32,815 nucleotides of DNA, taken from NCBI GenBank assembly GCA_039683525.1, contig JBDKRF010000016.1, positions 1-32,815 on the forward strand. Reading direction: 5' to 3'. Source of the DNA: Clostridiaceae bacterium. GTDB lineage: Bacteria; Bacillota; Clostridia; Christensenellales; CAG-138. The position numbers and the translations under genes are program-made. Below the pieces are notes generated by a model. That model saw nothing but the letters and a program-made list of their open reading frames with translations. It made no database searches and was not told where the DNA came from. Numbering within the stretch: position 1 is the first letter of the stretch; each line of letters opens with the position of its first letter. Shown piece after piece: positions 3,541 to 31,278 of the stretch.

Positions 3541-4164
3541 TTAAGCCGGGGTTTTCTTCGCCGGACGCTTCGGGAGCAAGCGAACCAGCATCAGCACAGA
3601 GAAGACGCAAAGCACGATCATACACAATAGGATAAGGCTTGCGAGTACGATTGCAAGAAGCGGGTTCTTCAAACTTTGGAAATCAAACTCAAACGACCTG
3701 ATATTCTTTGAATAGATCACAGAAGAACCGATTTGCAGCACGAGAAGCTCAAGAGATACTAAGATGACGGGTTTCCTCATGTAGTTCGCTGCTCGCGATG
3801 ATAGATACAACAGAAGGCTCCCGACATTGGACAAAGGGATGCCGAGCAAAGGAACGGCAAGAAACACGATTAAGGTTGGATCGCCTACTAGGATGAGGCC
3901 AAAAGCGCTCATGTTGACTGCGAATAGAAACGGCGCAAAAACAAGCATTGCTGCGGCAATCGCGAGGCCGTACGGCTTCCGCTTGCGCGGCGGATGCGGC
4001 TCAACCTGCTCGGACGGCGGAGTCGGATCGAGCGTTTGTAACGGCGCGCTCTCCGGCAAATCGGAAAGCGCAACAGAAGTCTCTTCTGCGGGTAGTTCCT
4101 GCGACTTTTGTTCGAGACGTTTGCCACGCATATTCACGTGGCGGATGACGATCGGGCTGTGCAA
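3541..4164 (-). CDS. hypothetical membrane protein, paralogue 1 (Pro-rich N-terminus plus about 4 TM helices)
   Basis: 207-aa ORF with a TTG start 6 nt after GAAGGAAGG. It shares blocks with 4245..4877: PPRKRKP / PRKRNP, LLLYLSSRAANYMRKPV / LILYFAARAAQYLRKTI and LLCMIVLCVFSVLMLVR / LLCMIALCVFSVLMLFR. I recognise no family. Confidence 0.7.
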   Translation of the reverse strand: MHSPIVIRHVNMRGKRLEQKSQELPAEETSVALSDLPESAPLQTLDPTPPSEQVEPHPPRKRKPYGLAIAAAMLVFAPFLFAVNMSAFGLILVGDPTLIVFLAVPLLGIPLSNVGSLLLYLSSRAANYMRKPVILVSLELLVLQIGSSVIYSKNIRSFEFDFQSLKNPLLAIVLASLILLCMIVLCVFSVLMLVRLLPKRPAKKTPA

Positions 4165-4244
4165 GTGCGGCCTTCCTTCTCTTAACGAAATTGAAACGGT
4201 TTCCTCTCAACGCTTACTCTTCTATGAGGATTATTCTGTCCGGC

Positions 4245-4877
4245 TTATGTCGCGGGGCTTTCAGTTTTTCTAAATACGCGAAACAGCATCAGCACGCTAA
4301 ACACGCACAGCGCGATCATGCAAAGCAGTGAGATCGCGACACAGATCAACGCGATCCAGCCTGCGACCGGGCTGAGGCCTGCGCTTGTCGCATCGACTGC
4401 GGCGAGCGGTTTTGCATATATGAAGGAGCTGACAATCGGCAGCAACACCGCGGCGAGTGTGGTGAAGCCGATGGTTTTCCGCAGATACTGCGCGGCACGA
4501 GCTGCGAAATACAGAATCAGACCGCCGATGTAGGAGGAGAACCGTACGATCAGCATGATCATCGGAAACATCAAGACCGGAAGTGGCTGACCGGTCAACG
4601 CGCCGTGGAAAAAATAAACCGCTGCGAACAGAACCGGCAGATAGATGAAAACCGTTCCGATGATGGAGATCACCTTCGGGTTTCTCTTGCGCGGCGTGCG
4701 CGGCGGAGTCGCCGAAGCCGGCGTGTGCGCCGGCAACGGAGAGAGCGGAGGAAGCGGCATATCCTCCGGAGGCACGGAGAGTGCGGAGATAATATTGTCC
4801 GTCACGCTATTTTCTTCCGCGAGATTTGGGCGTTTGCCGATCATCTTTTTCGGGTCGGTGTTGATTTTATATTGCAT
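4245..4877 (-). CDS. hypothetical membrane protein, paralogue 2
   Basis: 210-aa ORF with GGAG 7 nt upstream of the ATG. It has the same architecture and conserved blocks as 3541..4164. Confidence 0.72.
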   Translation of the reverse strand: MQYKINTDPKKMIGKRPNLAEENSVTDNIISALSVPPEDMPLPPLSPLPAHTPASATPPRTPRKRNPKVISIIGTVFIYLPVLFAAVYFFHGALTGQPLPVLMFPMIMLIVRFSSYIGGLILYFAARAAQYLRKTIGFTTLAAVLLPIVSSFIYAKPLAAVDATSAGLSPVAGWIALICVAISLLCMIALCVFSVLMLFRVFRKTESPAT

Positions 4878-4921
4878 ATACGAGCTCCATTTCAGATAGG
4901 CTTACTCAGATCAGCGATCAG

Positions 4922-5380
4922 TTACTCTTCCACGAGCACTTGCGACGGCTGCTTTGCAAAGAGCCTCCGGATCAGCAGGATGCCGAGGATCGCGAGAGCA
5001 ACCACGATGAAATTATATACAACGATCGCGGCGATGACCACGCCGAAGACCGCGCCGTTTTCCGCCAGTGCACCGGAAGCCAGACCCGACACGCTGGCGA
5101 AGATCTGCCCGCTGGTCAAAGCGACAAGCGCCGCCACGCTGCCCCAGCCGAACCACTTGCGAAACGTCTTACACAACAGACTCGCAAGTACAAGTAGCAC
5201 CAGACCCAGCGCGACAATCGGGAATAGTTCCGCGAGCATGAGATAATCAAACAGCAGGGCTTTGCCCAGTATGCTGCCAATGATCGCAGTCACAAACATA
5301 AACAGGATCGGCGCCCAGAGCAGGAGCGTTCCCGCGATGGCGAAAATCTTGGTGAGCACGGATTTTTGTTTTGGATTCAT
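4922..5380 (-). CDS. hypothetical 4-TM membrane protein (shorter, distant paralogue 3)
   Basis: The track ORF runs to 5554, but GGAGG sits 7 nt upstream of the internal ATG at 5380 (MNPKQKSVLTKIF...). The product is 152 aa and hydrophobic throughout. Its C-terminal block ILGILLIRRLFAKQP resembles the tails of the two upstream proteins. Confidence 0.6.
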   Translation of the reverse strand: MNPKQKSVLTKIFAIAGTLLLWAPILFMFVTAIIGSILGKALLFDYLMLAELFPIVALGLVLLVLASLLCKTFRKWFGWGSVAALVALTSGQIFASVSGLASGALAENGAVFGVVIAAIVVYNFIVVALAILGILLIRRLFAKQPSQVLVEE

Positions 5381-5600
5381 TTGAGTGCCTCCGATCAAAG
5401 TTTGAAGGGTTCGGGAATCGCATCGATCCGATAAACAGGAAATAGAAGTAGGTTTCTGTTGCTTCAAATTATATCGGAAAACTTCATTAGTGAACAGACC
5501 AAACCATGAACCGAGTTTCTCCGTTTTGCCAACCATTTTTACTTGTCTTCGCATAGGAAATGTGTATACTTGAAACAGATCATATGGGGGAGAGAATCAT

Positions 5601-12629: not shown

Positions 12630-13076
12630 GTGCTGATCGGTTCTTTCGAACATATGCTGGATGCTAAAGGCCGCGTATTTATCCCGGCGAAGTGGCGGGA
12701 AAGCGTGGGAGATACGCTTGTCATCACCCTTGGCTTATTGGAGTCCACGAGTGCCGCATGCCTCACCGGCAGATCGCTGGAAGAGTGGGAACGCTTTTCG
12801 CAGAAGCTCTCCGCGCTTGCGGTGAGCGACACGCAGGGTCAGGCGATCCGCAGAAAGCTCTATTCCATGGCGGCGGCCTGCGAAATCGACAAGCAGGGTC
12901 GCATCCTCATCCCCGCGCAGCTGCGCGAACTCACGGGCTTAAACAAGGACGCAACGCTGATTGGCGTTGGCGAACGTGTAGAGATTTGGAATCCGGAAGC
13001 GCTGGCTGCCTATAACGCAGCAAGCGAGGAGAACTATAGCGAGGCGCTGGCACATCTGGCGACACTCGGCATATGA
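12630..13076 (+). CDS. mraZ: division/cell wall cluster transcriptional regulator MraZ
   Basis: 148 aa with a GTG start after GGAGGAGGG. Both DxxxR-type half-domain motifs are present (LDAKGRVFIP and IDKQGRILIP). Confidence 0.93.
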   Translation: MLIGSFEHMLDAKGRVFIPAKWRESVGDTLVITLGLLESTSAACLTGRSLEEWERFSQKLSALAVSDTQGQAIRRKLYSMAAACEIDKQGRILIPAQLRELTGLNKDATLIGVGERVEIWNPEALAAYNAASEENYSEALAHLATLGI

Positions 13077-14682: not shown

Positions 14683-16908
14683 ATGGCTAAAACAGCGGCC
14701 CCCGCGCCGAAGATTAAACAAAAACTCGTTCTATTAATGGTATTCGCAGGCTTGCTGATGCTGTTGCTTGCGCTTCGCCTCACACAGGTTATGATTATCC
14801 AGGGACCTGAGTTGAAAGCAAAGGCAGAGGTGCAGTGGACGCGTAGGCAGAATTTAGCTGCCCAGCGCGGCAAGATAGTCGACCGAAACGGCCTGGTTCT
14901 CGCGCAGAGCGGAACGGCCTACCGCGTACTCGCCAACCCGCCCGCGATTGCGGCGGATGATCGTGTTCGCGTTGCCACCGAGGTTTCCGAGGTGCTCGGC
15001 CTCAACTATGATTATGTGATGGAGCGCATCTCACCCGATCCGGAAACCGGCAAACTCAGGTTGCAGGTGCAGCTCAAGCGCCAGGTGGAGAGCTCGGTCA
15101 TCGACCAGCTCGAAGCGTTGCAGCTCGGCAACGGTATCTCTTATACCACGGACATGAAGCGCTACTATCCCTTTGGACAGCTTTTTACGCAGCTGATCGG
15201 GTTTACCGGCATCGAGACGGAAGGGCAGACGGGACTGGAAGCGGAATACAACTCCTACCTCGCGGGTACAGCGGGACGCCTCGTTATCGAAGTCGACCGA
15301 AAGAACAATCCGCTTTCCTATGGTGAGCAGGATTACATCGCGGCGATCGAAGGTTATAATATGACGATCACGGCGGATTCCGTAACCCAGAGCTATCTGG
15401 AAAAGTATCTCCAGCAGTGCTACGAGCTAAACCGTGCAACCAGCGTATCGGGACTCATCATGAACCCAAACACAGGCGAGATATTGGCGGTTGGCTCCTA
15501 TCCATCCTTTGACCTCAACAACCCGCCGCGTGATATGGTAACCGAGCTCATGTCGATGTCCCGTGTGCGCTCTGTGACGGATACTTACGAAGCCGGCTCC
15601 ATGTTTGACGTGATCACCGCAGCGGCTGCGTTGGATTCCGGCTCTACGACGGAGGCCAGCAGCTATAAATGCGAAGGGTTTAAGATCTTCCGACTGGAGC
15701 GCGTGCCCTGCTGGAATACAAAAGGACACGGAAGCGAAACACTCTCTGAAGCACTGAATAACTCCTGCAACCTCGCGATGTCGGATATGGCGCTTGCGAC
15801 CGGAATCAACAAGTTCTACGACTACATCTATAACTTCGGCTTCGGTACGGAGACGAACGTCGGCATCCCTAGTGAAGACACCGGCGAAGTCATCCATCGC
15901 AAATACATTCGCGAAAGCGATTTATCCAAGATCGCGTTTGGCGAAAACATCACCACGACCGGAATTCAAATGGCAAATGCGTTTTGTGCGATCATCAACG
16001 GCGGAACGCTCATGCAGCCGTATGTGGTGGATAACATCACCTCGACGGACGGTACCATCATCGTGAAGAACGAGCCGACCATTCTGCGCAGAGTCAACCG
16101 CGCTAGCACTTCCGCAACCATGCGCTCCCTACTGCAAAAAGTAGCGGAGAAGGGTAACGCCAGCAACTCGCAGGTCATCAACTATCCGGTTGGCGGGTTC
16201 AGCGGGGTTTCGCGCAAGTTTGCGGAGGACGGGGTAACGCCCGATCGCATGCGCGTAGTTGCCTCATACATCGGCTTCTTACCGGTCAATGATCCCCAGC
16301 TTGTCTGCATGCTCATCATAGACGAGCCGCAGGTGCCCTATATGGAAGCGAGCAGCATTGCAGGCTATTGGGCATCCAAGATCCTGACCGATCTCGTGCA
16401 GTATTACGGCATTCTGCCGGATCTGGACACCAAGACGAAGACTTCCACCGTGCCAAACGTGACGGGTATGACGGCAAGAGATGCGGTTTATGCGCTCAAG
16501 CAAGAGGGATTTCAGGCGTACACCGTTCCGAGCGAGGATGCAGCAGGCGTTGTTGCACAATATCCTGCCGGAAATACGGAAGCGCCCTCCGGCTCCATCG
16601 TGATACTCTATACATCCATGACGACGTTTAACGATGACCAGCTCTACAAAGAACAAGTCGTCGTGCCGAACCTCGTCGAACGCCGCAGACAGGATGCATT
16701 TGACACACTCGCGAAACTCGGGTTGGTCCTGAGCTTTGATAAGACCCAATGCACCGGACAGATCGATACCCAGTCCATCGAGGCGGGCACAAAGGTTGAT
16801 CCGGGAACGGTGATCTACGTGACGTTCCCCAAACCTTCTCCTTCGCCTTCGACATCTCCGGACGCGAACGCGACGCCAGCCGCGCCGACACCGCTGCCGG
16901 AAGGATGA
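14683..16908 (+). CDS. class B penicillin-binding protein homologue (FtsI/PBP2B/SpoVD family, two PASTA domains) with degenerate catalytic motifs
   Basis: 741 aa with an N-terminal TM anchor and RGKIVDRNG. The transpeptidase fold aligns well with SpoVD-type sequences, and two PASTA repeats follow (VPNVTGMTARDA..., VPNLVERRRQDA...). The motifs read S306-M-F-D309, S361-C-N and F506-S-G. Confidence 0.9.
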   Translation: MAKTAAPAPKIKQKLVLLMVFAGLLMLLLALRLTQVMIIQGPELKAKAEVQWTRRQNLAAQRGKIVDRNGLVLAQSGTAYRVLANPPAIAADDRVRVATEVSEVLGLNYDYVMERISPDPETGKLRLQVQLKRQVESSVIDQLEALQLGNGISYTTDMKRYYPFGQLFTQLIGFTGIETEGQTGLEAEYNSYLAGTAGRLVIEVDRKNNPLSYGEQDYIAAIEGYNMTITADSVTQSYLEKYLQQCYELNRATSVSGLIMNPNTGEILAVGSYPSFDLNNPPRDMVTELMSMSRVRSVTDTYEAGSMFDVITAAAALDSGSTTEASSYKCEGFKIFRLERVPCWNTKGHGSETLSEALNNSCNLAMSDMALATGINKFYDYIYNFGFGTETNVGIPSEDTGEVIHRKYIRESDLSKIAFGENITTTGIQMANAFCAIINGGTLMQPYVVDNITSTDGTIIVKNEPTILRRVNRASTSATMRSLLQKVAEKGNASNSQVINYPVGGFSGVSRKFAEDGVTPDRMRVVASYIGFLPVNDPQLVCMLIIDEPQVPYMEASSIAGYWASKILTDLVQYYGILPDLDTKTKTSTVPNVTGMTARDAVYALKQEGFQAYTVPSEDAAGVVAQYPAGNTEAPSGSIVILYTSMTTFNDDQLYKEQVVVPNLVERRRQDAFDTLAKLGLVLSFDKTQCTGQIDTQSIEAGTKVDPGTVIYVTFPKPSPSPSTSPDANATPAAPTPLPEG

Positions 16909-17025
16909 CGCGCGGTACAGGGCTATGATGATTGTTCCGCCGGACGGTGTACCCGCACGGTGAATGATATACCGATTTCTATTTTCAAAGGGCGCGGAAG
17001 GTTCCGCGCGACGGGAGGTAACGAC

Positions 17026-18459
17026 ATGCTGCTTTCGGAACTGGCAATGGCATCCGGCCTGCGCTATGAAGGCGAAGATACGGATATCGTCTCCATTGAA
17101 TACGACTCAAGAAAAGTGAAAAAAGGCAGCCTGTTTTGCTGCATCGTGGGTTCGCTGCTCGACGGGCATACGTTTGCCGAGGGTGCGATTCAAAACGGTG
17201 CAACGGCACTGTTGGTTGAGCGGGAGCTTCCGGTTCCCGTGCCGCAGCTCGTGGTCAAAAACGCGCGCAAAGCGATGGCCGAAATGGCTGCCGCGTTCTA
17301 TGGATATCCCCAGCGTGAGATGATGATGTTGGGCGTCACCGGCACGAACGGCAAGACCACCACGACCTATATGGTCAAGGCGATTGCCGAGCAGGCGGGC
17401 AAGAAGGTCGGCGTCATCGGCACAATCCGCAACCTCATCGGCAACGAAAGCATCCACACAGACCGCACCACGCCGGAATCGGTCGATCTCTTCCGCATCC
17501 TGCGCATGATGGCGGATGCGCATGTTGACCTCGTCGTGATGGAGACAAGCTCCCACGCGTTGGAGCAATTCCGCGTTCACGGCATTAAGTTTGATGTAGG
17601 TCTGTTTACCAACCTCACACAAGACCATTTGGATTATCATAAATCGTTTGACAACTATCTTGCCGCGAAGAAGATTCTCTTCCTCAACAGCAAAAAGGCT
17701 GTCGTCAACGTGGACGATCCCTACTCCGCGCGCATCATGGAAGGCTTAACGATTCCGATTCTTACCTTCGGCGTGCGCGACCGCGCGGATATCTCCGCGA
17801 CGGATATCGACATCACGACCGACGGCGTCCGCTTTGATCTGCATACGCCGGAGGGCGAGGTGCTCATGAATCTTGCGATTCCCGGGCTGTTCTCCGTGTT
17901 TAACGCGATGGGTGCCGCCGGTATGGCGCTTGCGGTCGGCATGAAGCTCAGCGCGATCAAAGCCGGACTGGAATCGCTGACCAGTGTCTCCGGCAGGCTG
18001 GAGCCTGTGAAGACAAACAGGGGATTTTCGGTATTTGTCGACTATGCGCATACGCCCGACGCGTTGGAAAACGTGCTCAAGACCGTGCAGCAGTTTGCAA
18101 AAGGCCGCGTCATCTGCGTCTTTGGCTGCGGCGGAGACAGAGACCGCGCCAAGCGCCCCATCATGGGCGAAATCGCGGGCAGGTTCTCCGAGTTTGCGGT
18201 CATCACGAGCGACAATCCGCGTACGGAAGAACCAATGTCAATCATCGAGTCGATCGAAGAGGGAATGAAGCGAAGCGGAACGAAATACACCGTCATCGAG
18301 AACCGCAAAGAGGCGATCCGCTATGCATTAGCCGCCGCGCAAAACGACGACGTGATCATGATCGCGGGCAAAGGCCACGAGAACTATCAGGAGATCAACG
18401 GCACAAAGTATCACTTTGACGACAAAGAGATTGTCGAGGAGCTGCTCGGCGAGCTGTAA
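17026..18459 (+). CDS. murE: UDP-N-acetylmuramoyl-L-alanyl-D-glutamate--2,6-diaminopimelate ligase
   Basis: The start is set at ATG 17026 after GGGAGG. Motifs present: GVTGTNGKTTT, TTPE, ETSSHAL, FTNLTQDHLDYH, VDYAHTPDALE, GCGGDRDRAKRP and the meso-DAP-type DNPR motif (SDNPRTE). Confidence 0.93.
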   Translation: MLLSELAMASGLRYEGEDTDIVSIEYDSRKVKKGSLFCCIVGSLLDGHTFAEGAIQNGATALLVERELPVPVPQLVVKNARKAMAEMAAAFYGYPQREMMMLGVTGTNGKTTTTYMVKAIAEQAGKKVGVIGTIRNLIGNESIHTDRTTPESVDLFRILRMMADAHVDLVVMETSSHALEQFRVHGIKFDVGLFTNLTQDHLDYHKSFDNYLAAKKILFLNSKKAVVNVDDPYSARIMEGLTIPILTFGVRDRADISATDIDITTDGVRFDLHTPEGEVLMNLAIPGLFSVFNAMGAAGMALAVGMKLSAIKAGLESLTSVSGRLEPVKTNRGFSVFVDYAHTPDALENVLKTVQQFAKGRVICVFGCGGDRDRAKRPIMGEIAGRFSEFAVITSDNPRTEEPMSIIESIEEGMKRSGTKYTVIENRKEAIRYALAAAQNDDVIMIAGKGHENYQEINGTKYHFDDKEIVEELLGEL

Positions 18460-18480
18460 TTCAAACGAAAATAACAAACA

Positions 18481-18596
18481 ACCGCAAGTAACGCTTGAAC
18501 ATACAGGCTGCTTGCGGTATTTGTTTGCCGCGCAGGCGGCAAACAAACATCCCGCCGTTTTGGGGATTGTCCCAAGCGTATTTTCGGGGGTATAAT
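18481..18596 (+). promoter_or_regulatory. murE-mraY spacer: two strong hairpins followed by a promoter-like element abutting the mraY start
   Basis: Hairpin 1 is ACCGCAAG / CTTGCGGT (18481..18518). Hairpin 2 is a 12-bp stem TTTGTTTGCCGC-GCAG-GCGGCAAACAAA (18520..18547). Then come TTGTCC (18567..18572), an 18-nt spacer and TATAAT (18591..18596), 6 nt before ATG 18603. Confidence 0.4.
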
Positions 18597-18602
18597 ACCG
18601 AT

Positions 18603-19640
18603 ATGCTGCAAATACTCATGACCGCGTTGACGGCGTTTGTGATCGTTTGGCTGCTTGGCCCGCTGCTGATTCCCGTGCTGGCGCGGCTGAAACCAACCAG
18701 ACCGGAGCCGGAAGACTCCCCCGAACCACCGCCGCAACCATCCTCAAAAAAAAAGCAGGCGCCGCCGCCGAAACCGCCCGTGCCAACCATGGGCGGTGTG
18801 CTGGTGTTGCTTGCAGCTTCGATTGCGACGCTCATCTTCGGCATGGACGGGATGGAGTTTGCGCTACCCGCGCTGGTCGCGATGCTTGCATTCGGTGTGC
18901 TGGGATTCATCGATGATTTTATTCGCGTACGCGACCCGGACGGAATCGGCCTTCGCGCCAGCGTGATGATCGGTGCTGAGTTGGTCTTTGCCGCGATCAT
19001 TGCGATCTGGGCGTATCGCTCCCCGCTGATTGGCTCCTCTCTGCATCTGCCGATCTCCGGCGGAGAATGGCAGATCGGATTCTGGTATGTGCCGCTGGTG
19101 ATCATGACCGTGATGCTTGAAGCCAACGCCGCGCACCTGAGTGAGGGAATGGATGGGCTTGTTACGAGCGTTAGCACAGTGTATGCGCTGGCGATGATTG
19201 CGATATTTGCAGCGATGGCGTCGACAGCCAATCAGCAGGGCGAACTGCTACAGGGGCATAACCTCGTCGGCAGCGCGATCTTTGCCGCGGCGGTAGGCGG
19301 CGCTGGCGTCGGTTTTTTGCGCTACAACACCTATCCCGCGCGCATCCAACCCGGCTCGAGCGGATCGCTTGCGCTCGGCGGAGCGGTCGCGATGCTGGCC
19401 ATTCTCAGCCGGACTATCATCCTTTTACCGCTCATGAGCGCATGCCTGCTGGTCAGTTTCGCATCCATCCTGCTGCAATCGTTCAGCAAAACGCGCGAAG
19501 GCGGCAAGAAGCTCTTTCGCGCCGTACCGCTGCATCGACACTTTGAGCTAAGAGGGCACCCGGCATCCCAGATTTCAACGATGTATGCCATTCTCACGGC
19601 GGCAATTTGCGCATTCTGTCTGCTGCCATATTTTCGATAA
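18603..19640 (+). CDS. mraY: MraY-family (PNPT superfamily) membrane protein; phospho-MurNAc-pentapeptide translocase homologue with non-canonical conserved residues
   Basis: The start is set at ATG 18603 (MLQILMTALTAF...). PTMGG, GFIDDF, GMDGL and GSLALGG place it in the MraY family, in the canonical slot between murE and murD. Several invariant positions are substituted (see findings). Confidence 0.85.
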   Translation: MLQILMTALTAFVIVWLLGPLLIPVLARLKPTRPEPEDSPEPPPQPSSKKKQAPPPKPPVPTMGGVLVLLAASIATLIFGMDGMEFALPALVAMLAFGVLGFIDDFIRVRDPDGIGLRASVMIGAELVFAAIIAIWAYRSPLIGSSLHLPISGGEWQIGFWYVPLVIMTVMLEANAAHLSEGMDGLVTSVSTVYALAMIAIFAAMASTANQQGELLQGHNLVGSAIFAAAVGGAGVGFLRYNTYPARIQPGSSGSLALGGAVAMLAILSRTIILLPLMSACLLVSFASILLQSFSKTREGGKKLFRAVPLHRHFELRGHPASQISTMYAILTAAICAFCLLPYFR

Positions 19641-19691
19641 CGCATCGCCCGAATGTTCTCGCGGGCTATTTTTTTGGAGGCAATAAACGAA

Positions 19692-21044
19692 ATGGAACAA
19701 CACAAGAAGGCGCTGATCGTCGGCATGGCAAAAAGCGGCGTCGGCGCGGCAAAATTGCTCAAAAGCACCGGCTGGGACGTGGTCATCAACGACAAGAAGA
19801 CCGAGATACCGGGGCTGGCGGAAGCGCTGAGCGGCGTGGACGTCGTCTGGCGGCTTGGCGAAGACCCGCAGGCGCTGTTTGACGGCGTTACGCTCATCGT
19901 GATCAGCCCGATCATCCCCATGACGGTTCCGTTTGTACGCGAGGCGCAGGCACGCGGCATAGAGGTCATCAGCGAGATCGAGCTTGGATATCGCTATAGC
20001 CACGCAGAGTTCGTCTGCATCACCGGAACAAACGGAAAGACCACCTGTACCGCGCTGACCGGAGAGATCTTCAAAAACGGCGGCAGGCACACGTTTGTGC
20101 TCGGCAATATCGGGGTCGCGATCACCGAGCACGCGCTCGATACGCGCGAAGGTGACGTCGTCGTCGCCGAGACCGCGGGTTTGCAGCTCGAGGGAAACGT
20201 ACACTTCCACGCGCGGGCTGCGGGCGTTTGCAACATCACGGAGGACCACCTCGACCACTTCGGCTCGATGGAGAACTACATCGCCGCCAAGTGCAAGATA
20301 TTTGATCATCAGACGGCGGAGGATATTGCTGTATTGAACTACGACGACGCGGTCGTGCGCGACATGGCGCGGCTGACTCCCGCGCGTGTCTATTATTTCT
20401 CGCGCAAGGGCGAGGTACCGCGCGGGCTGTTTTTGCGCGGGTATACGGTCGTCTACCGAGACGAAAACGGCGAATACGACCTCATTCGCGCGGAAGAGAT
20501 CAAGATTCCCGGCGGACACAATCTGGAGAACGCGATGCTGAGCTCGCTGCTTGCGCTCGGCATGGGCATATCCGCCGATGCGGTGCGAGAGACGCTCAGG
20601 AGCTTCCCCGGTGTGGAGCACCGCATTGAGTTTGTGCGCGAGTTTGACGGCGTGCGGTACATCAACGACTCCAAGGGCACCAACCCGGATTCGACCATCA
20701 AGGCGATTCAGGCGATGACCAGACCTACCGTGCTGATCCTGGGCGGTTACGATAAGCACAGCGATTTTCATGAGCTGTTTGAGAACTTCCGCGGCAGCCA
20801 GCTGAAATCCATCGTCGTGCTTGGCGAAACCAAGCAAAAGATTCTCGATACCGCGCGGGACACGGGCTACCTTGGCTACTGCCACGCAACGGGAACGTTT
20901 GAAGACGCGGTCTCCTGCGCGCGCGTACTGGCCGCCTCCGGCGACGCGGTGCTGCTTTCGCCCGCCTGCGCAAGCTGGGATATGTTCGATAACTTCGAGC
21001 AGCGGGGCAGGGTATTCAAGGAGATCGTGAATCGGTTCGCGTAA
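19692..21044 (+). CDS. murD: UDP-N-acetylmuramoylalanine--D-glutamate ligase
   Basis: The start is set at ATG 19692 after GGAGG (MEQHKKALIVGMAKSG). Motifs present: ITGTNGKTT, NITEDHLDHF, AAKCKIF, GGHNLENA, FPGVEHRIEFV..YINDSKGTNPDS and LLSPACASWDMF. Confidence 0.92.
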   Translation: MEQHKKALIVGMAKSGVGAAKLLKSTGWDVVINDKKTEIPGLAEALSGVDVVWRLGEDPQALFDGVTLIVISPIIPMTVPFVREAQARGIEVISEIELGYRYSHAEFVCITGTNGKTTCTALTGEIFKNGGRHTFVLGNIGVAITEHALDTREGDVVVAETAGLQLEGNVHFHARAAGVCNITEDHLDHFGSMENYIAAKCKIFDHQTAEDIAVLNYDDAVVRDMARLTPARVYYFSRKGEVPRGLFLRGYTVVYRDENGEYDLIRAEEIKIPGGHNLENAMLSSLLALGMGISADAVRETLRSFPGVEHRIEFVREFDGVRYINDSKGTNPDSTIKAIQAMTRPTVLILGGYDKHSDFHELFENFRGSQLKSIVVLGETKQKILDTARDTGYLGYCHATGTFEDAVSCARVLAASGDAVLLSPACASWDMFDNFEQRGRVFKEIVNRFA

Positions 21045-21101
21045 TATTGTACCTACTCCCTTAGCAGGGGAGCACCTTGTAAAACAAGAATGAGCAGAAA
21101 T

Positions 21102-21130
21102 AAAAAAACGCCCCGTAGGGCGTTTTTATT
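21102..21130. terminator. bidirectional intrinsic terminator between murD and the convergent hydrolase gene
   Basis: AAAAACGCCC-CGTA-GGGCGTTTTT is flanked by an A-run and a T-run. Confidence 0.85.
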
Positions 21131-21144
21131 TTAGTTTCGCTAAA

Positions 21145-21705
21145 TTACTCGTTCACGATGTCGATGTGGCAGGCTTTCATCGCGGTGAGCGCGGTCTTAT
21201 GCCCTTCGGGCGTTGCGCCAGCGCAGGCTGCGGCGTCTACCGTGATGGTCGATTCGGGATAAAACGCCTTGAGGAGTAGTGCGTTACTGATCACGCAGAT
21301 ATCCGTGCAGAGGCCGACAAGATCGATCTCCTCCGGCTCGACGCCCTCCAGCATCTCATGGATGCGCATGGGCAGGCTCACGCCACCAAAGGTGTCCTTC
21401 GCGATCATGTGCTGCTCGTCCGCCACGTTTTTGTGCATCAGCGCCATCCAGATGGCGGAATTCGGCGCCCAGCCGTTGGTGCCCGCGATGCAGTGCGGAA
21501 CTGGCAGCTTTTGCCCTTCTTTCGTGTTGAGGTAATCCTCGGTGTGCGTATCGAGCGTGTAGAGAATCAGCCCGTCAAAGTCGAGAATGCGCTTCACGAC
21601 GGGCTCGACTACCGCCTGCGCTTCCTTCGAGCCAAGCGAACCGGAGATAAAATCGTTTTGCATGTCTACCACGACGAGGACTTTTTTTGCGATTGTCTGT
21701 TCCAT
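21145..21705 (-). CDS. isochorismatase-family cysteine hydrolase, nicotinamidase (PncA)-like
   Basis: 186 aa with VLVVVDMQNDFISGSLG, LPVPHCIAGTNGW and the catalytic-Cys block VGLCTDICV. Confidence 0.8.
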   Translation of the reverse strand: MEQTIAKKVLVVVDMQNDFISGSLGSKEAQAVVEPVVKRILDFDGLILYTLDTHTEDYLNTKEGQKLPVPHCIAGTNGWAPNSAIWMALMHKNVADEQHMIAKDTFGGVSLPMRIHEMLEGVEPEEIDLVGLCTDICVISNALLLKAFYPESTITVDAAACAGATPEGHKTALTAMKACHIDIVNE

Positions 21706-21750
21706 ATGATGATTTCCTTTCGGATGATTCAGTACGAGCTTTTAGGATGC

Positions 21751-22500
21751 TCAGCGGGGCATTGCCTCGGAGACGACGTAGAGCAGCACGCCAGCCGCGA
21801 CGGAGGCGTTGAGCGATTCCGCGCGCCCGCGCATAGTGAGGCAAAAGCGCTCACACTGCTCGGCGACCGCTTCGCTTACTCCGCTGCCTTCGCTGCCGAT
21901 GACAAGCGCGACGTTGCTTGAGAGTGCGGGTAGGTCTTCGCTGCCTTTCAGATCGCCGCAGAGCGCTGTAAAGCTCTGCTGACGCAGCTTTGCGATCTCC
22001 GGCAGAAGTTCGCCCTGCCAAACGGAGAGATGATACGTGGAGCCCATCGCGGCGCGGAGCGTCTTTGGCGCGTAAGCGTCCGCGCAGGCGGGGGAAAGCA
22101 GAAGGCCTGCGGCACCAAACGCGTCCGCCGAGCGGAGAATGGCACCAACGTTGCCGGGGTCCTGCACACCGTCCAGCACGACGACAAGTCCATCGGGATA
22201 ACGCTCCGGCGGGGTGAGGGAGGGCGTTTTGACCACGGCAACGACGCCCTGCGGCGTCTGACTCTCGCAGAGGGATTCCAGCACCGCGCGGGTAACGACG
22301 TAGGTGATCGCGCTCTCCGGCGGCGTAAATGCGAAGCCATCCTCCACAAAGCAGGAGACGATGACGGCTCCGGAAGAAACGGCTTCCCGCACGAGTTTGT
22401 CACCCTCGATGAGGTGCAGTCCGCTGTCTTTGCGTTCCTTGCGGGTTAGAAGCTTTCTCGCTTCTTTGACGCGCTCATTGGCGCGGCTCTCGATGATCAT
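21751..22500 (-). CDS. TrmH/SpoU-family RNA 2'-O-methyltransferase (RlmB-like)
   Basis: Trimmed to ATG 22500 (MIIESRANERVKEARKL). SPOUT motifs are present: VVVLDGVQDPGNVGAILRSADAFG, LVIGSEGSGVS and ESLNASVAAGVLLY. Confidence 0.85.
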   Translation of the reverse strand: MIIESRANERVKEARKLLTRKERKDSGLHLIEGDKLVREAVSSGAVIVSCFVEDGFAFTPPESAITYVVTRAVLESLCESQTPQGVVAVVKTPSLTPPERYPDGLVVVLDGVQDPGNVGAILRSADAFGAAGLLLSPACADAYAPKTLRAAMGSTYHLSVWQGELLPEIAKLRQQSFTALCGDLKGSEDLPALSSNVALVIGSEGSGVSEAVAEQCERFCLTMRGRAESLNASVAAGVLLYVVSEAMPR

Positions 22501-22549
22501 TGTGCGCGAAGCTCCTTTCGTGATAGAAACGCTCTGTGTAAGCCGTGGC

Positions 22550-23092
22550 TTAAGCCTGCGATTGCCGCAACCATTCATCCCGGGTCAAAGAATACACTGC
22601 CTCGTCAAAGATCGCGCCGTCGTAGCGCAGAAACGTTTGCCGCAGTGTGCCTTCGTAGATGAAGCCGCATTTTTCGATCACGCGGCGGGAGCGATCGTTA
22701 AAGGTGTAGTGCGATATGCTCATGAGCCGGAGATTGAGCTGCTCAAAGCCGTAGCGCTGCACGCGCCTGACCGCCTCGCTCATGTAGCCGTTGCCCCAGC
22801 AGTCCTGCGCGAGCACATAACCGATCATGCGTACATCCGGCAGGTTGCGCCATTTATCGTGGTGCAGGCCGATGGAGCCGATCATGCGGTGATCGCTCTT
22901 GCGTTCGATGGCAAACACGTTGTCATCTGCGATAAACATCTCAACGATGGAAAGCGACTCCTCCCGGCTCTCGTGCGGCTTCCAGCCTGCGCGCGGGCCG
23001 ACATCGGAATCGACCGCATACCGATAGAGGTCGTCCGTGTCCCGCTCGGTAAAACCGCGCAGGATCAGGCGCTCGGATTCCAATCGCTCCAT
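22550..23092 (-). CDS. GNAT-family N-acetyltransferase (RimJ/RimL-like)
   Basis: ESERLILRGFTERDTDDLYRY... and a GNAT core (WGNGYMSEAVRRVQRYGFEQL). AGGAG lies 10 nt before ATG 23092; the track start at 23110 has no SD sequence. Confidence 0.8.
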   Translation of the reverse strand: MERLESERLILRGFTERDTDDLYRYAVDSDVGPRAGWKPHESREESLSIVEMFIADDNVFAIERKSDHRMIGSIGLHHDKWRNLPDVRMIGYVLAQDCWGNGYMSEAVRRVQRYGFEQLNLRLMSISHYTFNDRSRRVIEKCGFIYEGTLRQTFLRYDGAIFDEAVYSLTRDEWLRQSQA

Positions 23093-23193
23093 AACAGCAT
23101 GACTCCTCATTTTTCTGTATAGTATAACATACCCGACGTTGTGAGTCAGCGAGGCTCGTGCAATTCCTTGAGAAATAGGCGATCTCTTCGTTG

Positions 23194-24450
23194 TTACGTG
23201 CCTTCTAGACCGTCGTCGATGGCGTTGGCTACGGCTGTGTCGTCCTCGGTGGATGGCAGGGGCGGTTCAGCCGAGACCCGCTTGCGCAGCAGGGCAACAG
23301 CGGCGCAAACTAGGATCAGGCAGACGCCAGCAATCAGCCACATATTCTGATAGCGGGAATAGGTGCTGATGAAAAACCCGCCGACCGACGCAAGTACGCC
23401 GCCGATTTGCAGCACCAGCGAAAACAGCGAGAGGATACTCGCGCGGTGACTCGAGGGCGCAATTCGATTCAAGAGGGTGCTTTCTACCACGCTGCTGCTG
23501 CCGATGAGCAAATAGAGGCCAAGGTAGAGGCCGATCAGCGAATACTCGCTCCCGGAGAACGAGAACAGGATCAAACCTAGACCAAGCGGCGCTTTGAGCA
23601 GAAGCAGGAGCTGCACGCCCGCGTTCGGATACCGTTGCAACAGGCGCTCCGCAACCCAGCAGCCGAGCATGACAAACGCAAACCCGGCGAACGTCACCGC
23701 GCCAAACAGCCAGTAGACCGGCTGATACGTTTCCAGCGCGGGCTGCCAGTAAATCTCGATCACACTCAGCGATAACCCTGTCAGCAGGCAGAAGATCAGC
23801 AGAATCCGCACGGTTCCGCGCATTTTCGCAAAGGACAGGCTCTCCTTGATCTGCTTGGTGAATCGTTGCAGGTGAGAGGTTGCGACATGCTGCTCATGCA
23901 CGCGCGGGGTTTCGTGAAGAAACAACACGGTGAGCAGGATGATGACTACGGTAATGACGATATTCACACCAAGGTTGAAGGAAAATCGCTCTCCGACCTC
24001 CGCCAGAACGCCGCCGATCAGCGCGCCGCCGCCAAGGCCAGCACTCTCCAGAATGGAAAGCCGTGCGGTGACCCGCTCTAGCGGAACCTGCATTTCGCCC
24101 GCCTGATCGATCATGAGCGCCTCAATACTGCCGGAGGAAAAGGCGCGGCTTAAGCCGTTGATGACCATGGCGACGAGCAGAACCGCCGCGGAGCGGGAGA
24201 AAAAGAACATGCAATAGCTGATGAGATAGAGGATGCAGGAGAGCAGAAAAGAGGTTTTTCTGCCGTAAAGATCGGCAAACACACCGCTGGGAAACTCCGC
24301 CGCAATCACGGTAACGGAATACAGCCCGATAACCAGCGAAATGGTCTCTATCGTGGCGCCGCGCGCGAGCAGCATCAGCGACAAGATCGGTACGATGGTG
24401 CCACTTGCGAAAAACTTCAGAAAATAAATCAGCTGAATCGGCTTACTCAT
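23194..24450 (-). CDS. MFS transporter
   Basis: The start at ATG 24450 overlaps the stop of the upstream regulator (ATGAGTAA). The 418-aa product is polytopic, with MFS-like loop motifs (FADLYGRK). Confidence 0.85.
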   Translation of the reverse strand: MSKPIQLIYFLKFFASGTIVPILSLMLLARGATIETISLVIGLYSVTVIAAEFPSGVFADLYGRKTSFLLSCILYLISYCMFFFSRSAAVLLVAMVINGLSRAFSSGSIEALMIDQAGEMQVPLERVTARLSILESAGLGGGALIGGVLAEVGERFSFNLGVNIVITVVIILLTVLFLHETPRVHEQHVATSHLQRFTKQIKESLSFAKMRGTVRILLIFCLLTGLSLSVIEIYWQPALETYQPVYWLFGAVTFAGFAFVMLGCWVAERLLQRYPNAGVQLLLLLKAPLGLGLILFSFSGSEYSLIGLYLGLYLLIGSSSVVESTLLNRIAPSSHRASILSLFSLVLQIGGVLASVGGFFISTYSRYQNMWLIAGVCLILVCAAVALLRKRVSAEPPLPSTEDDTAVANAIDDGLEGT

Positions 24451-25003
24451 GCGTTTCGTGCTCCGCGGGATAAGCGATGATCGCAAATTCCCAGGCTTCA
24501 TTGTCTTGATTCCGCTGTTCATGCGCGTCTAAAAACGATCGAATCATCTGATAGAGCTCCTTTGCTTCTGCTGGTGTTAGGTGCGTGATGCCGCTGATCA
24601 TGTCCCCATATTGCGTATCGTCGCTGATTCGAACGCCAAGCGCTTCGCAATACGCCAAAAAGCCGGCAAAGCGCTGCGAGATATCCGCCTGCATGAGCGC
24701 TATGCGCTGGTTGTTCTCCCCGTCGTCCTTCAGCCCGCCGATGCGCACGTTTCTCGGCAGTACGCGAAAATACGTCGCTGTGATGCCGTGAATCTGCTCG
24801 GTATGGCTCTGCTCCACAATGCCCAGCTCACGCAGCAGGCGGATATGGCGTTGCACGGAGGAGGAGGAGATGCCGACGCGGTCGGCAACCTGCTTTGCGG
24901 TCATGGGGACACCCGCGATCTGCATGCAGCGCAGAATGTTCTGCCGCTGCGGATTGACATAGATATCCAGTTCCTTTTTGCCGGTTAACACGATAGGTTC
25001 CAT
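24443..25003 (-). CDS. ArsR-type winged-helix transcriptional regulator
   Basis: 186 aa with AGGAGG 6 nt upstream of the ATG. The HTH reads NPQRQNILRCMQIAGVPMTAKQVADRVGISSSSVQRHIRLLRELGIVEQ. It is translationally coupled to the MFS gene. Confidence 0.8.
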   Translation of the reverse strand: MEPIVLTGKKELDIYVNPQRQNILRCMQIAGVPMTAKQVADRVGISSSSVQRHIRLLRELGIVEQSHTEQIHGITATYFRVLPRNVRIGGLKDDGENNQRIALMQADISQRFAGFLAYCEALGVRISDDTQYGDMISGITHLTPAEAKELYQMIRSFLDAHEQRNQDNEAWEFAIIAYPAEHETHE

Positions 25004-25862: not shown

Positions 25863-26393
25863 TTATGTCGGGGTTTTCTTCTCAGCCTTGGGAGCGAGAA
25901 TCATGAACAGGCTTCTGCCTTCCATCTTTGGCTCGCGCTCTTTGATCGCGCTGTCGCCAAGCATCTCGTAGAAACGGGTCATGACGTCCATGCCGATCTC
26001 GCCGTGTGTGATCTGGCGGCCGCGGAAGCGGATGGATACCTTGACTTTGTCGCCGTCCGCAAGGAATCTGATGGTCTGCTTGGCTTTGATCTCCATGTCG
26101 CGAACGTCAATGGTTGCGGAAAGGCGCGTTTCTTTGAGCTCGATGATCTTCTGATTCTTTCGCTGTTCCTTCTCGCGCTTACCCATTTCAAAACGGTACT
26201 TGCCGTAATCCATGAGCTTGCAGACGGGCGGAGTGCTGTTGGGTGCGATCTTGACCAGATCCAGTTCACGTTCATCGGCCATCTTTTGCGCCGCGCGGAC
26301 ATCTACGATGCCGAGCTGGTCGCCATTTTCGCCGATTAAGCGGACCTGTGGGTCACGGATCTCTTCATTGATCATCAATTCCGTGATAGCGAT
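25863..26393 (-). CDS. infC: translation initiation factor IF-3, probable non-canonical ATC start
   Basis: INEEIRDPQVRLIGENGDQLGIV... is typical IF-3. GGAGG (26407..26403) lies 9 nt before the in-frame ATC at 26393, but 24 and 27 nt before the TTG 26378 and ATG 26375 used by the track. Confidence 0.9.
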   Translation of the reverse strand: MAITELMINEEIRDPQVRLIGENGDQLGIVDVRAAQKMADERELDLVKIAPNSTPPVCKLMDYGKYRFEMGKREKEQRKNQKIIELKETRLSATIDVRDMEIKAKQTIRFLADGDKVKVSIRFRGRQITHGEIGMDVMTRFYEMLGDSAIKEREPKMEGRSLFMILAPKAEKKTPT

Positions 26394-26571
26394 GGCAGTA
26401 CACCTCCATAATAAAATAAAAATAGTGGGCGCAAATCAGATTGCACCCACTATGAACAAACCATCCGTTAAGAAAGAGTGTTGCTACCGTGCCTGACAAT
26501 CGTCGGCAGGTGAGAAGCGGGCGCTTCTGCTTGAACATGCTTATTATATGGATAAGCGCGTGCCATGTCAA
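26394..26571 (-). promoter_or_regulatory. consensus promoter plus L20-leader-type attenuator upstream of infC-rpmI-rplT
   Basis: On the minus strand, TTGACA (26571..26566), a 17-nt spacer, then TATAAT (26548..26543). A leader of about 140 nt follows. It ends in a 12-bp hairpin (26422..26453, one mismatch) followed by TTTTTATTTTATT, immediately before the infC SD sequence. Confidence 0.7.
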
Positions 26572-30924: not shown

Positions 30925-31001
30925 GGGGTTATAGCTCAGCTGGTCAGAGCGCTACGTTGACATCGTAGAGGTCGTTGGTTCGATCCCAATTAACCCCACC
31001 A
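30925..31001 (+). tRNA. tRNA-Val (anticodon GAC), CCA encoded
   Basis: Cloverleaf read by hand: acceptor GGGGTTA / TAACCCC, D arm GCTC..GAGC, anticodon arm CTACG-TTGACAT-CGTAG, T arm GTTGG-TTCGATC-CCAAT, discriminator A, CCA. Confidence 0.92.
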
Positions 31002-31010
31002 CCTTCAAAA

Positions 31011-31194
31011 TTGAATATCCTGCGGTGTGCGTTACGTCTTCCGTTTATAAACCCACAAAGTAACTTCGGGAGCGTTTCGTTGAGAAGACAAGATCAGGCC
31101 CGTTACGGATGGGAAGATCGCGGCAATCACGGCGTACCCACCTGCCGAGAGGCGGGTGTTATAAAGAGGGCGAACGGCACTTCGGGATACTCAA
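31011..31194 (+). ncRNA. candidate structured RNA of unknown class within the tRNA-Val/tRNA-Gln spacer
   Basis: The 5' strand 31011..31050 pairs with the 3' strand 31159..31194 for about 33 bp in five helical segments separated by 1-2 nt bulges. An 8-bp hairpin with a GAGA tetraloop (31139..31158) abuts this rod. No terminator or promoter separates it from the flanking tRNAs. Confidence 0.5.
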
Positions 31195-31204
31195 CAGACC
31201 GCAT

Positions 31205-31278
31205 TGCGGAATTGTGTAATGGTAGCACCTACGACTCTGACTCGTATTGTCTAGGTTCGAGTCCTAGTTCCGCAGCCA
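31205..31278 (+). tRNA. tRNA-Gln (anticodon CTG), CCA encoded
   Basis: Acceptor TGCGGAA / TTCCGCA (U1-A72, typical of bacterial tRNA-Gln), anticodon arm TACGA-CTCTGAC-TCGTA, T arm CTAGG-TTCGAGT-CCTAG, discriminator G, CCA. Confidence 0.9.

Follow-up and report, generated by a model that had tools for sequence, protein, structure and literature searches.

MraY, a target of antibiotics, is an enzyme that is essential, nearly universal and present in single copy; its DD...D triad and HHH motif are treated as invariant. In the Bacillus subtilis (Bs) enzyme the residues D98, D99, K116, N171, D174, D231, H289 and H290 are catalytically important, and the HHH loop of the Aquifex (Aa) enzyme is oriented to the Mg2+ site (PMC5039524). 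The uridine pocket is formed by Aa K70, G194-D196 and F262 and the uridine-adjacent pocket by Aa T75, N190, D193 and G264, with H325 being contacted by four of the five nucleoside inhibitor classes (PMC6606608). Here we describe an MraY variant encoded at 18603..19640 of a 32,815-nucleotide contig (JBDKRF010000016.1; this whole stretch is hereafter the window) of a Clostridiaceae bacterium placed by GTDB in the Christensenellales; coordinates refer to the forward (+) strand unless marked otherwise. The protein of 345 residues, encoded between murE and murD in the division and cell wall (dcw) cluster, is an MraY orthologue by fold, domain, position and descent, and it fails the TIGR00445 cutoff and the PF10555 signature and lacks the Mg2+ Asp, the second Asn of loop C, the intact HHH and the stacking Phe.

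Domain analysis placed the protein in the polyprenyl-phosphate N-acetylhexosamine-1-phosphate transferase (PNPT) superfamily, with a match to PF00953 (Glycos_transf_4) of 81.5 bits against a gathering cutoff of 27. Its score for the MraY equivalog TIGR00445 is 182.7 bits, below the curated cutoff of 192.05, and the domain scan of the window protein gave no match to PF10555, the signature of MraY loop A. The AlphaFold2 model, built from a 48-sequence alignment, has a predicted local distance difference test score (pLDDT) of 81.6 and a predicted template-modelling score of 0.83. A Foldseek search of the PDB with this model returned MraY structures as all top 24 matches, with template-modelling scores of 0.67-0.89 (~0.8), and in the model the fold of ten transmembrane helices (TM) typical of MraY is retained. 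Compared to the canonical enzymes (PDB 4J72, 5JNQ and 8G01), the window protein thus shares the fold, PF00953, the slot between murE and murD, the DD pair, PTMGG, the uracil-binding Asp of DGxDGL and the two outer His of HHH. It differs by the missing Mg2+ Asp, uracil-stacking Phe, N190, K133 and loop A signature, by HRH in place of HHH, by a 13-residue Pro/Lys-rich insertion, and by catalytic loops that are not hyper-conserved.

A homology search of 5.8 billion proteins, listed as the best 120 matches, revealed 72 protein clusters with the whole set of changes and an identity of 63-97% to the window protein (hereafter the clade); the next-nearest relatives among the matches listed, at ≤59% identity, are fully canonical MraY proteins. 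The clusters come from NCBI, ENA, JGI and Logan assemblies, and a scan of GTDB genomes showed that the clade consists of uncultured environmental Christensenellaceae/Christensenellales, including four closed chromosomes of metagenome-assembled genomes (MAGs; OW818651.1, OY762962.1, OY776633.1 and OY762290.1). For comparison, 14 catalytic and pocket positions were tabulated in 147 diverse MraY representatives taken from an exhaustive search of 1.84 billion sequences. Since 97 of the 147 match the Escherichia coli (Ec) enzyme at all 14 sites and ~137 retain both the Mg2+-binding Asp and the middle His of HHH, with a few divergent lineages lacking the Asp, the pattern in the window goes far beyond chance.

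The residues were placed by phmmer against the MraY structures of C. bolteae (5jnq), Aquifex (4j72) and E. coli (8g01) and in two MAFFT alignments of 113 and 152 homologues. The phmmer and both MAFFT alignments put the changed residues in identical columns, and an alignment shift as the source of the substitutions was thereby ruled out: in none of the five did a different placing of gaps restore the Asp, His and Asn, the outcome that would have undone the first-pass annotation of this DNA. In loop D (QPGS, 19347..19358) the GDxGS motif reads GSSGS, with Ser252 (TCG, 19356-19358) at the position of the Mg2+-coordinating Asp (Aa D265, Ec D267, Bs D231); across the clade this position is Ser in 62 members, Ala in seven, Asn in two and Tyr in one, and Asp in 0/72. 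The uracil-stacking Phe (Aa F262, Ec F264) is replaced by Gln249, with Gln in 66 clade members and Glu in six. In loop B (DDFIR, 18912..18926) the DD pair (window D104/D105, Ec D115/D116, Aa D117/D118) is kept, as in 72/72 of the clade, and DDxxK reads DDFIR within GFIDDFIR, Ec K119 being Arg in 62/72. Farther downstream, the Lys of GLxxxxK is missing from GIGLRASVMIG: Met122 (18966..18968) occupies the position of Ec K133/Bs K116, where the clade has Met in 45, Lys in 20 and Leu in six members, Lys being retained in the basal members and Met found in the crown. The Arg of GLR is itself also canonical (GLRAYQK).

In loop C (19125..19160) the window protein has NAAHLSEGMDGL in place of the canonical NAVNLTDGLDGL. 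Of the motif NxxNxxDGxDGL, the first Asn and the last Asp (Aa D196, here Asp184) are kept, whereas the second Asn (Aa N190, Ec N192) is His178 and the first Asp (Aa D193) is Glu181; the N190 position varies among His, Arg, Gln, Lys, Tyr and Leu across the clade. Loop E has gained Arg298 (19494..19496; Ec L313 to Arg in 68/72), and HHH has become HRH (19533..19541, CAT CGA CAC) within PLHRHFE, where Arg312 (CGA, 19536-19538; Ec H326R) is fixed in 72/72 clade clusters. Judged from the published orientation of the HHH loop (PMC5039524), Arg312 would lie close to Ser252 and the Mg2+ site. Except for Gln249, Arg298 and the loop A His described below, which it did not list, these changes had been read by eye in the first-pass annotation, from the retained GFIDDF and the loop C change at ~19120..19160 to the TCG and CAT CGA CAC codons, and translation and alignment bore out each of them.

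The replacement of the loop A signature, placed at ~18680..18795 in that annotation, likewise stands. The remodelled loop A between TM1 and TM2 (18684..18785) is Pro/Lys-rich, with 14 Pro and five Lys within 34 residues, and ~13 residues longer than the canonical loop; the region 18681-18797 encodes ARLKPTRPEPEDSPEPPPQPSSKKKQAPPPKPPVPTMGG. It does not match the MraY pattern KxGQxxRxxGPxxHxxKxGTPTMGG, as F53, G54, G61, H65, G70 and T71 (Ec numbering) of the signature (KFGQ, GP..H and GTPTMGG) are lost, and the loop A His (Ec H65) is Ser or Thr in the clade. The MAFFT alignment showed that the insertion is conserved throughout the clade. Residues 32-57 have a pLDDT below 50 in the AlphaFold2 model, and the insertion is predicted to be disordered. 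A homopolymer of nine A at 18747-18755 (+), which would be prone to slippage, encodes the KKK of loop A, but a KKK(K)Q stretch is conserved in variant and canonical relatives alike.

The gene order gyrA-gyrB / mraZ-rsmH-ftsL-PBP-murE-mraY-murD / isochorismatase-SpoU, where PBP denotes a penicillin-binding protein, recurs unchanged in 18 variant loci and in two loci, L013 and L015, whose MraY proteins are fully canonical (334 residues, 55-57% identical to the window protein). As this order is shared with L013 and L015, whose MurE is 91% identical to that of the window (MurD 86%), the window gene is the positional orthologue of mraY; overall, the window protein is 55-59% identical to the canonical MraY orthologues of its nearest relatives. 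The change of MraY took place on the stem of the clade. A paralogue in the slot or a tandem duplicate was ruled out by the synteny with L013 and L015 and by tblastn of all loci.

The ratio of nonsynonymous to synonymous substitution rates (dN/dS), calculated by the Nei-Gojobori method (NG86), is 0.21 for the variant MraY within the clade (median identity 68%) and 0.096 for the canonical MraY of L013 versus L015 (identity 80%). Within the clade the values are 0.05 for MurE (93%), 0.095 for MurD (88%) and 0.11 for the class B PBP (82%). The variant mraY is therefore under purifying selection and is the most relaxed gene of the cluster except ftsL. Conservation reaches ≥97% in 96 columns of 39 canonical relatives; of these columns, 47 are kept by the clade, 29 are partly kept and 20 are lost. 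The kept positions include D115, D116, D198, PTMGG, G266, P323, H325, H327 and E329 (Ec numbering), and the retention rate of DD, D198, T73, G266, H325, H327 and E329 is 83-100%. The positions newly fixed in the clade are H326R and F264Q/E (72/72 each), Q137E and M321A (71/72 each), L313R and K119R. An artefact of sequencing or assembly, or a decaying pseudogene, might be suspected from the nine-A homopolymer (KKK) within the gene and from a lineage that is uncultured and known mostly through MAGs. However, the open reading frame (ORF) is intact with zero ambiguous bases, the same state recurs in 72 clusters from four sources and on the four closed chromosomes, dN/dS is 0.21, and the KKK(K)Q stretch occurs in canonical relatives too, so that this explanation is improbable in the extreme and was set aside.

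A tree built without the motif columns revealed that the combined loss of the Asp and change of HHH to HRH arose at least twice. The two changes occur together in 75/75 sequences, and Arg is found in 0/39 canonical sequences. P0087 and P0091, which adjoin the clade in the tree, have the Asp-to-Ser change and HRH, lack the loop insertion and still possess the loop A His; we read the Pro/Lys-rich insertion as a later, clade-specific addition. P0075 is nested among canonical sequences and is 90% identical to the canonical P0084, and it has independently gained D241G, H301R and L168Q together with F31S, L38P, S42P and G48S in loop A, among them changes at loop A positions also altered in the clade (F53 and G70, Ec numbering). 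It also sits in the dcw slot, with a dN/dS of 0.10 overall. When polarised with L013 and L015, the P0075 branch has 24 changes versus nine on the canonical branch. The cytoplasmic loops, 30% of the protein, account for 12 of the 24 (binomial P = 0.03).

Further lineages of the order show related changes: the Asp is Arg in P0143 and P0268, with HMH or HQH; Lys in P0231, with HRH; Glu in P0251, with HRQ and N192R; and Arg in P0276. The MraY proteins in the dcw slot of such lineages (L082, L088, L089 and L091) are changed further than the window protein, with the Asp replaced by Arg or Lys, HHH by HMH, RKR or WAI, and the loop C Asps lost. Wherever the contig extends far enough, each of these proteins is encoded between murE and murD, with ftsW, murA and ftsQ next in the cluster. 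Their lineages are as close to the window as canonical Christensenellaceae are (MurE 61-65%, MurD 65-67% and GyrB 75% identity), and their sister species hold a canonical MraY in the same slot (P0278, which is L085, and P0269-P0271). Between L082 and L091, dN/dS is 0.30 for MraY, 0.05 for MurD, 0.06 for FtsW, 0.115 for MurE and 0.16 for the PBP. Because MurD, FtsW, MurE and the PBP are constrained and the PBP motifs of L082 (STFK, SCN and KTG) are intact, the peptidoglycan pathway is retained in these lineages.

Taken as a group (P0143/P0268, P0272/P0273/P0279, P0276, P0231 and P0243/P0251; L082, L088, L089 and L091), these degenerate proteins share with the window protein the order, the slot, the presence of canonical sisters, the loss of the Mg2+ Asp and of the loop A signature, the gain of Arg or Lys, and purifying selection (dN/dS 0.30). 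They differ in belonging to independent lineages, being only 32-36% identical to the window protein, in lacking the Pro-rich insertion, in the frequent replacement of the Asp by Arg or Lys, and in the loss of HHH and the loop C Asps in several of them. Moreover, a canonical PBP lies beside them and the cluster goes on with ftsW-murA-ftsQ. In ten degenerate sequences we examined the direction of the substitutions at Ec positions 192, 193, 264, 267 and 325-327. Arg or Lys occupies 22 of the 50 substituted cells of the metal/diphosphate site (44%), against a background of 6.3% and 0/6 cells in canonical sequences; the binomial P of 7e-14 is nominal, as the cells are phylogenetically non-independent, and at least one Arg/Lys gain is present in every lineage. 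Random decay would not be expected to give this pattern, and the residues suggest a pocket shifting from an acidic, metal-holding to a cationic one. The first-pass annotation had proposed a protein that is inactive or uses altered chemistry or an altered substrate. That set of options stands. The changes are a conserved state of 72 clusters, not a one-off decay, and simple inactivation does not predict directional, parallel gains of Arg and Lys at the metal site. Of the close relatives with the same residues in a single mraY and with normal peptidoglycan synthesis, which that annotation named as a sign of a tolerated lineage variant, these clusters supply the shared residues.

We tentatively propose that the variant is the lineage's own orthologous MraY and may still be a lipid I synthase, in which basic side chains replace Mg2+. 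In this proposal the canonical Mg2+-Asp centre would have shifted to a metal-ligand-free cationic centre, whose guanidinium and ammonium groups would do the job of Mg2+, neutralising and positioning the diphosphate of uridine diphosphate (UDP)-MurNAc-pentapeptide, while the retained DD pair would serve as the proposed base for undecaprenyl phosphate. Transfer of phospho-MurNAc-pentapeptide to undecaprenyl phosphate would then still yield lipid I, probably less efficiently and with a looser geometry. Such a geometry would tolerate more variation in the loops and a cation at different positions in different lineages, and electrostatic stabilisation, being geometrically less demanding than metal coordination, would lower the conservation per site. 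We base the proposal on positional orthology, the apparent single copy and purifying selection (0.21 in the clade, 0.10 for P0075 and 0.30 in the most changed lineages), on the retained DD, D198, H325 and H327 (Ec numbering) and the intact MraY fold, and on the coupled, parallel Asp loss and His-to-Arg change with cationic enrichment. The pathway still needs lipid I, as MurE and MurD are tightly constrained in the clade, as are MurD and FtsW in the parallel lineage. A precedent is offered by the bacterial glycosyltransferases of family 6 (GT6), which retain activity after the loss of the metal-binding motif (PMC3961637). Like MraY they are UDP-sugar enzymes; NXN stands for DXD in them, and polypeptide contacts replace those between substrate and metal. 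They differ from the window protein in being soluble GT-A-fold enzymes with another reaction, and in that their activity is experimental, whereas that of the window protein is deduced.

Several observations weigh against a retained lipid I synthase activity. To our knowledge, no metal-independent PNPT has been described. Former invariants drift in the clade (N192 to His, Arg, Gln, Lys, Tyr or Leu; D267 to Ser, Ala, Asn or Tyr; K133 as Met, Lys or Leu), and the cytoplasmic loops A-D, at 1.19-1.41 times the protein-mean conservation in canonical relatives, stand at 0.92-1.02 times in the clade. The TIGR00445 scores form a gradient of 306, 284, 221, 204, 183 and then 133-170 bits, from the canonical P0084 at 306 through the basal clade member P0061 at 204. 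Turnover of UDP-MurNAc-pentapeptide is hard to reconcile with P0272, where loop C reads AAVRRSVAPDGF and HHH is RKR, or with P0243, which lacks both D198 and HHH. Single mutations of D265/D267/D231, K116, N171 or H290 abolish or strongly cut MraY activity (PMC6606608, PMC5039524). Finally, the absence of a second mraY is not established genome-wide, although scans of closed chromosomes, GTDB patterns and loci found none.

These observations lend themselves to a different explanation, which we regard as possible but doubtful: a non-catalytic or nearly inactive MraY derivative kept for carrier-lipid binding or as a divisome scaffold for the membrane steps of wall synthesis, with lipid I supplied by a second MraY or another PNPT elsewhere in the genome. 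As one possible role, such a protein may use the DD pair together with the newly gained basic residues to bind undecaprenyl-(pyro)phosphate or lipid I. The protein does show the loss of residues essential for catalysis by which a pseudoenzyme is recognised, as the equivalents of D265, N190, K133, H325 and F262, several of them individually essential or important (PMC6606608, PMC5039524), are gone. In the same direction point the lost extra constraint on the catalytic loops, the dN/dS doubled versus the canonical pair, and the graded series up to near-complete motif loss in the same slot of sister lineages whose MurD, FtsW, MurE and PBP are constrained. Dimerisation of MraY is coupled to carrier-lipid binding (PMC9046198), which makes the carrier lipid a plausible non-catalytic ligand, and the gained Arg and Lys could just as well stabilise an acidic pocket left without its metal.

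The supply of lipid I from elsewhere is where a non-catalytic MraY meets its difficulties. No canonical match of ≥43% identity was found on closed chromosomes of 3,395,507, 3,673,039 and 2,853,364 bp, in a search that reaches close paralogues only; the GTDB scan, limited to the peptide patterns chosen, gave one match per genome and no second copy; and tblastn of all loci detected no tandem copy in any of them, none of these scans being genome-wide. As far as we know, mraY is almost always single-copy, and we know of no backup enzyme for MraY. P0278 was considered as a second copy in the organism of P0143 and rejected, being the orthologue from a sister species. A tblastn search for a mobile mraY in plasmid and phage collections was uninformative, its matches being mislabelled chromosomes, chromids or contaminated records. 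The canonical sisters L013, L015, P0084 and P0278 keep the slot copy strongly constrained, which speaks against an old, order-wide backup, so that replacements would have to be gained independently at least 3-5 times or be conditionally redundant. Redundant genes, moreover, are usually deleted, not kept intact at a dN/dS of 0.2-0.3 across many species, and parallel changes at the same position to the same charge are unexpected under plain relaxation. In the searchable literature on MraY paralogues, inactive MraY and Christensenella MraY, we found no description of such proteins.

The class B PBP encoded two genes upstream (14683..16908) is SpoVD/FtsI-like and carries two PASTA domains; its transpeptidase motifs are degenerate, in line with the loss of catalytic residues noted in the first-pass annotation. 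SxxK is SMFD and KTG is FSG, with SxN kept, a state shared by every variant locus as well as by L013 and L015, at the dN/dS of 0.11 given above; in more distant Christensenellaceae the PBP has STFK and KTG. Judging by its degenerate motifs, the window PBP is probably a divisome protein without transpeptidase activity. As it shows that the lineage retains catalytically dead dcw proteins, it adds to the case for a non-catalytic MraY. Catalytically dispensable or dead class B PBPs resemble the variant MraY in being wall-synthesis proteins of the dcw cluster kept after the loss of catalytic residues, and differ from it in belonging to another protein family. A transpeptidase-dead mutant of B. subtilis PBP2B is viable, and the redundancy of PBPs with one another is well established. 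The degeneracy of the PBP is older than the change of MraY, since it is present in L013 and L015 with canonical MraY. A single coupled event for both proteins was rejected, because a dead PBP occurs with a canonical MraY in L013 and L015 and a canonical PBP with a degenerate MraY in L082.

A third explanation, which we consider unlikely, is a neofunctionalised enzyme that keeps the fold and the polyprenyl-phosphate site, and whose donor pocket is rebuilt (loop A, F262Q, N190H, D193E and H325R) for another donor or another reaction on a pyrophosphate-linked lipid; evasion of the nucleoside antibiotics against MraY or of phage lysis proteins is a possible alternative driver. The changed residues coincide with the uridine, uridine-adjacent, Mg2+ and loop E hot spots of all five inhibitor classes (PMC6606608), and the cleft residues fixed at F264, H326, M321 and Q137 point to a new constraint. 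However, the variability of positions 192 and 267 speaks against a new pocket of precise shape. The gene also keeps its slot between murE and murD beside a canonical, highly constrained UDP-MurNAc-peptide pathway that needs the acceptor step, and the window encodes no evident pathway for another donor.

A conserved promoter of its own, upstream of the gene, could also be taken as a sign of a new function. The murE-mraY spacer (18460..18602, 143 nt) contains hairpins followed by TTGTCC-N18-TATAAT, which ends 6 nt before the ATG. Its predicted fold has a minimum free energy of -57.5 kcal/mol (z -5.6), and relatives have a terminator-like GC hairpin with a T-run; a search of Rfam revealed no known RNA family in the spacer. 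The arrangement GGGGATTGTCC-N18-GGGGTATAAT is conserved in 16 variant loci and in the canonical L013, L015, L093 and L095, and probably marks a separate promoter with a leaderless mraY-murD transcript. As it is common to canonical relatives, the promoter predates the change of MraY and therefore argues little for neofunctionalisation.

The dcw block of the window runs in the order mraZ (12630-13076, at the start of the block), rsmH, ftsL, class B PBP, murE, the mraY variant and murD, with gyrB and gyrA upstream in divergent orientation. MurE (16960..18459) and MurD (19653..21044) are canonical, in line with their intact look at first pass, and score 615 bits for NF001126 (cutoff 373) and 384.6 bits for TIGR01087 (cutoff 212), respectively. 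The block ends at murD and is followed, at 21045-25003, by convergent genes for an isochorismatase, a SpoU methylase, a major facilitator superfamily transporter and a helix-turn-helix regulator. In other Christensenellales (L082, L085, L089 and L091), murD is followed by ftsW, murG/murA and ftsQ, genes that are absent from the window. Elsewhere in the window, Rfam identified an L20 leader at 26411-26538 (-), upstream of infC (initiation factor IF3, 25863-26378, minus strand), and a tandem of tRNA, 6S RNA and tRNA at 30925-30998, 31014-31192 and 31205-31275 (+). Three tandem ORFs of ~210 codons on the minus strand at 3541-5554 (3541-4164, 4245-4877 and 4922-5554) have no Pfam match and are mutually paralogous, with 23-35% identity and BLASTP E values of 1e-29 to 1e-5.

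For genome annotation, TIGR00445 scores below the cutoff mean that pathway reconstructions from MAGs would wrongly call MraY missing in these organisms; the NCBI record of P0143, for example, carries the label "hypothetical protein". With respect to the enzyme family, it is possible, if somewhat doubtful, that a PNPT site able to make lipid I in the absence of the Mg2+-anchoring Asp, with Arg and Lys doing the electrostatic work of the metal, has evolved repeatedly in the Christensenellales. If so, this would be the first metal-ligand-independent MraY or PNPT, probably insensitive to nucleoside antibiotics that compete with Mg2+. If not, these bacteria would have a second route to lipid I, and the MraY of the dcw slot would have been repurposed as a phosphate-lipid-binding protein. 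Either the catalytic requirements of the PNPT superfamily are not absolute, or an undiscovered route to lipid I exists together with a non-catalytic role of MraY.

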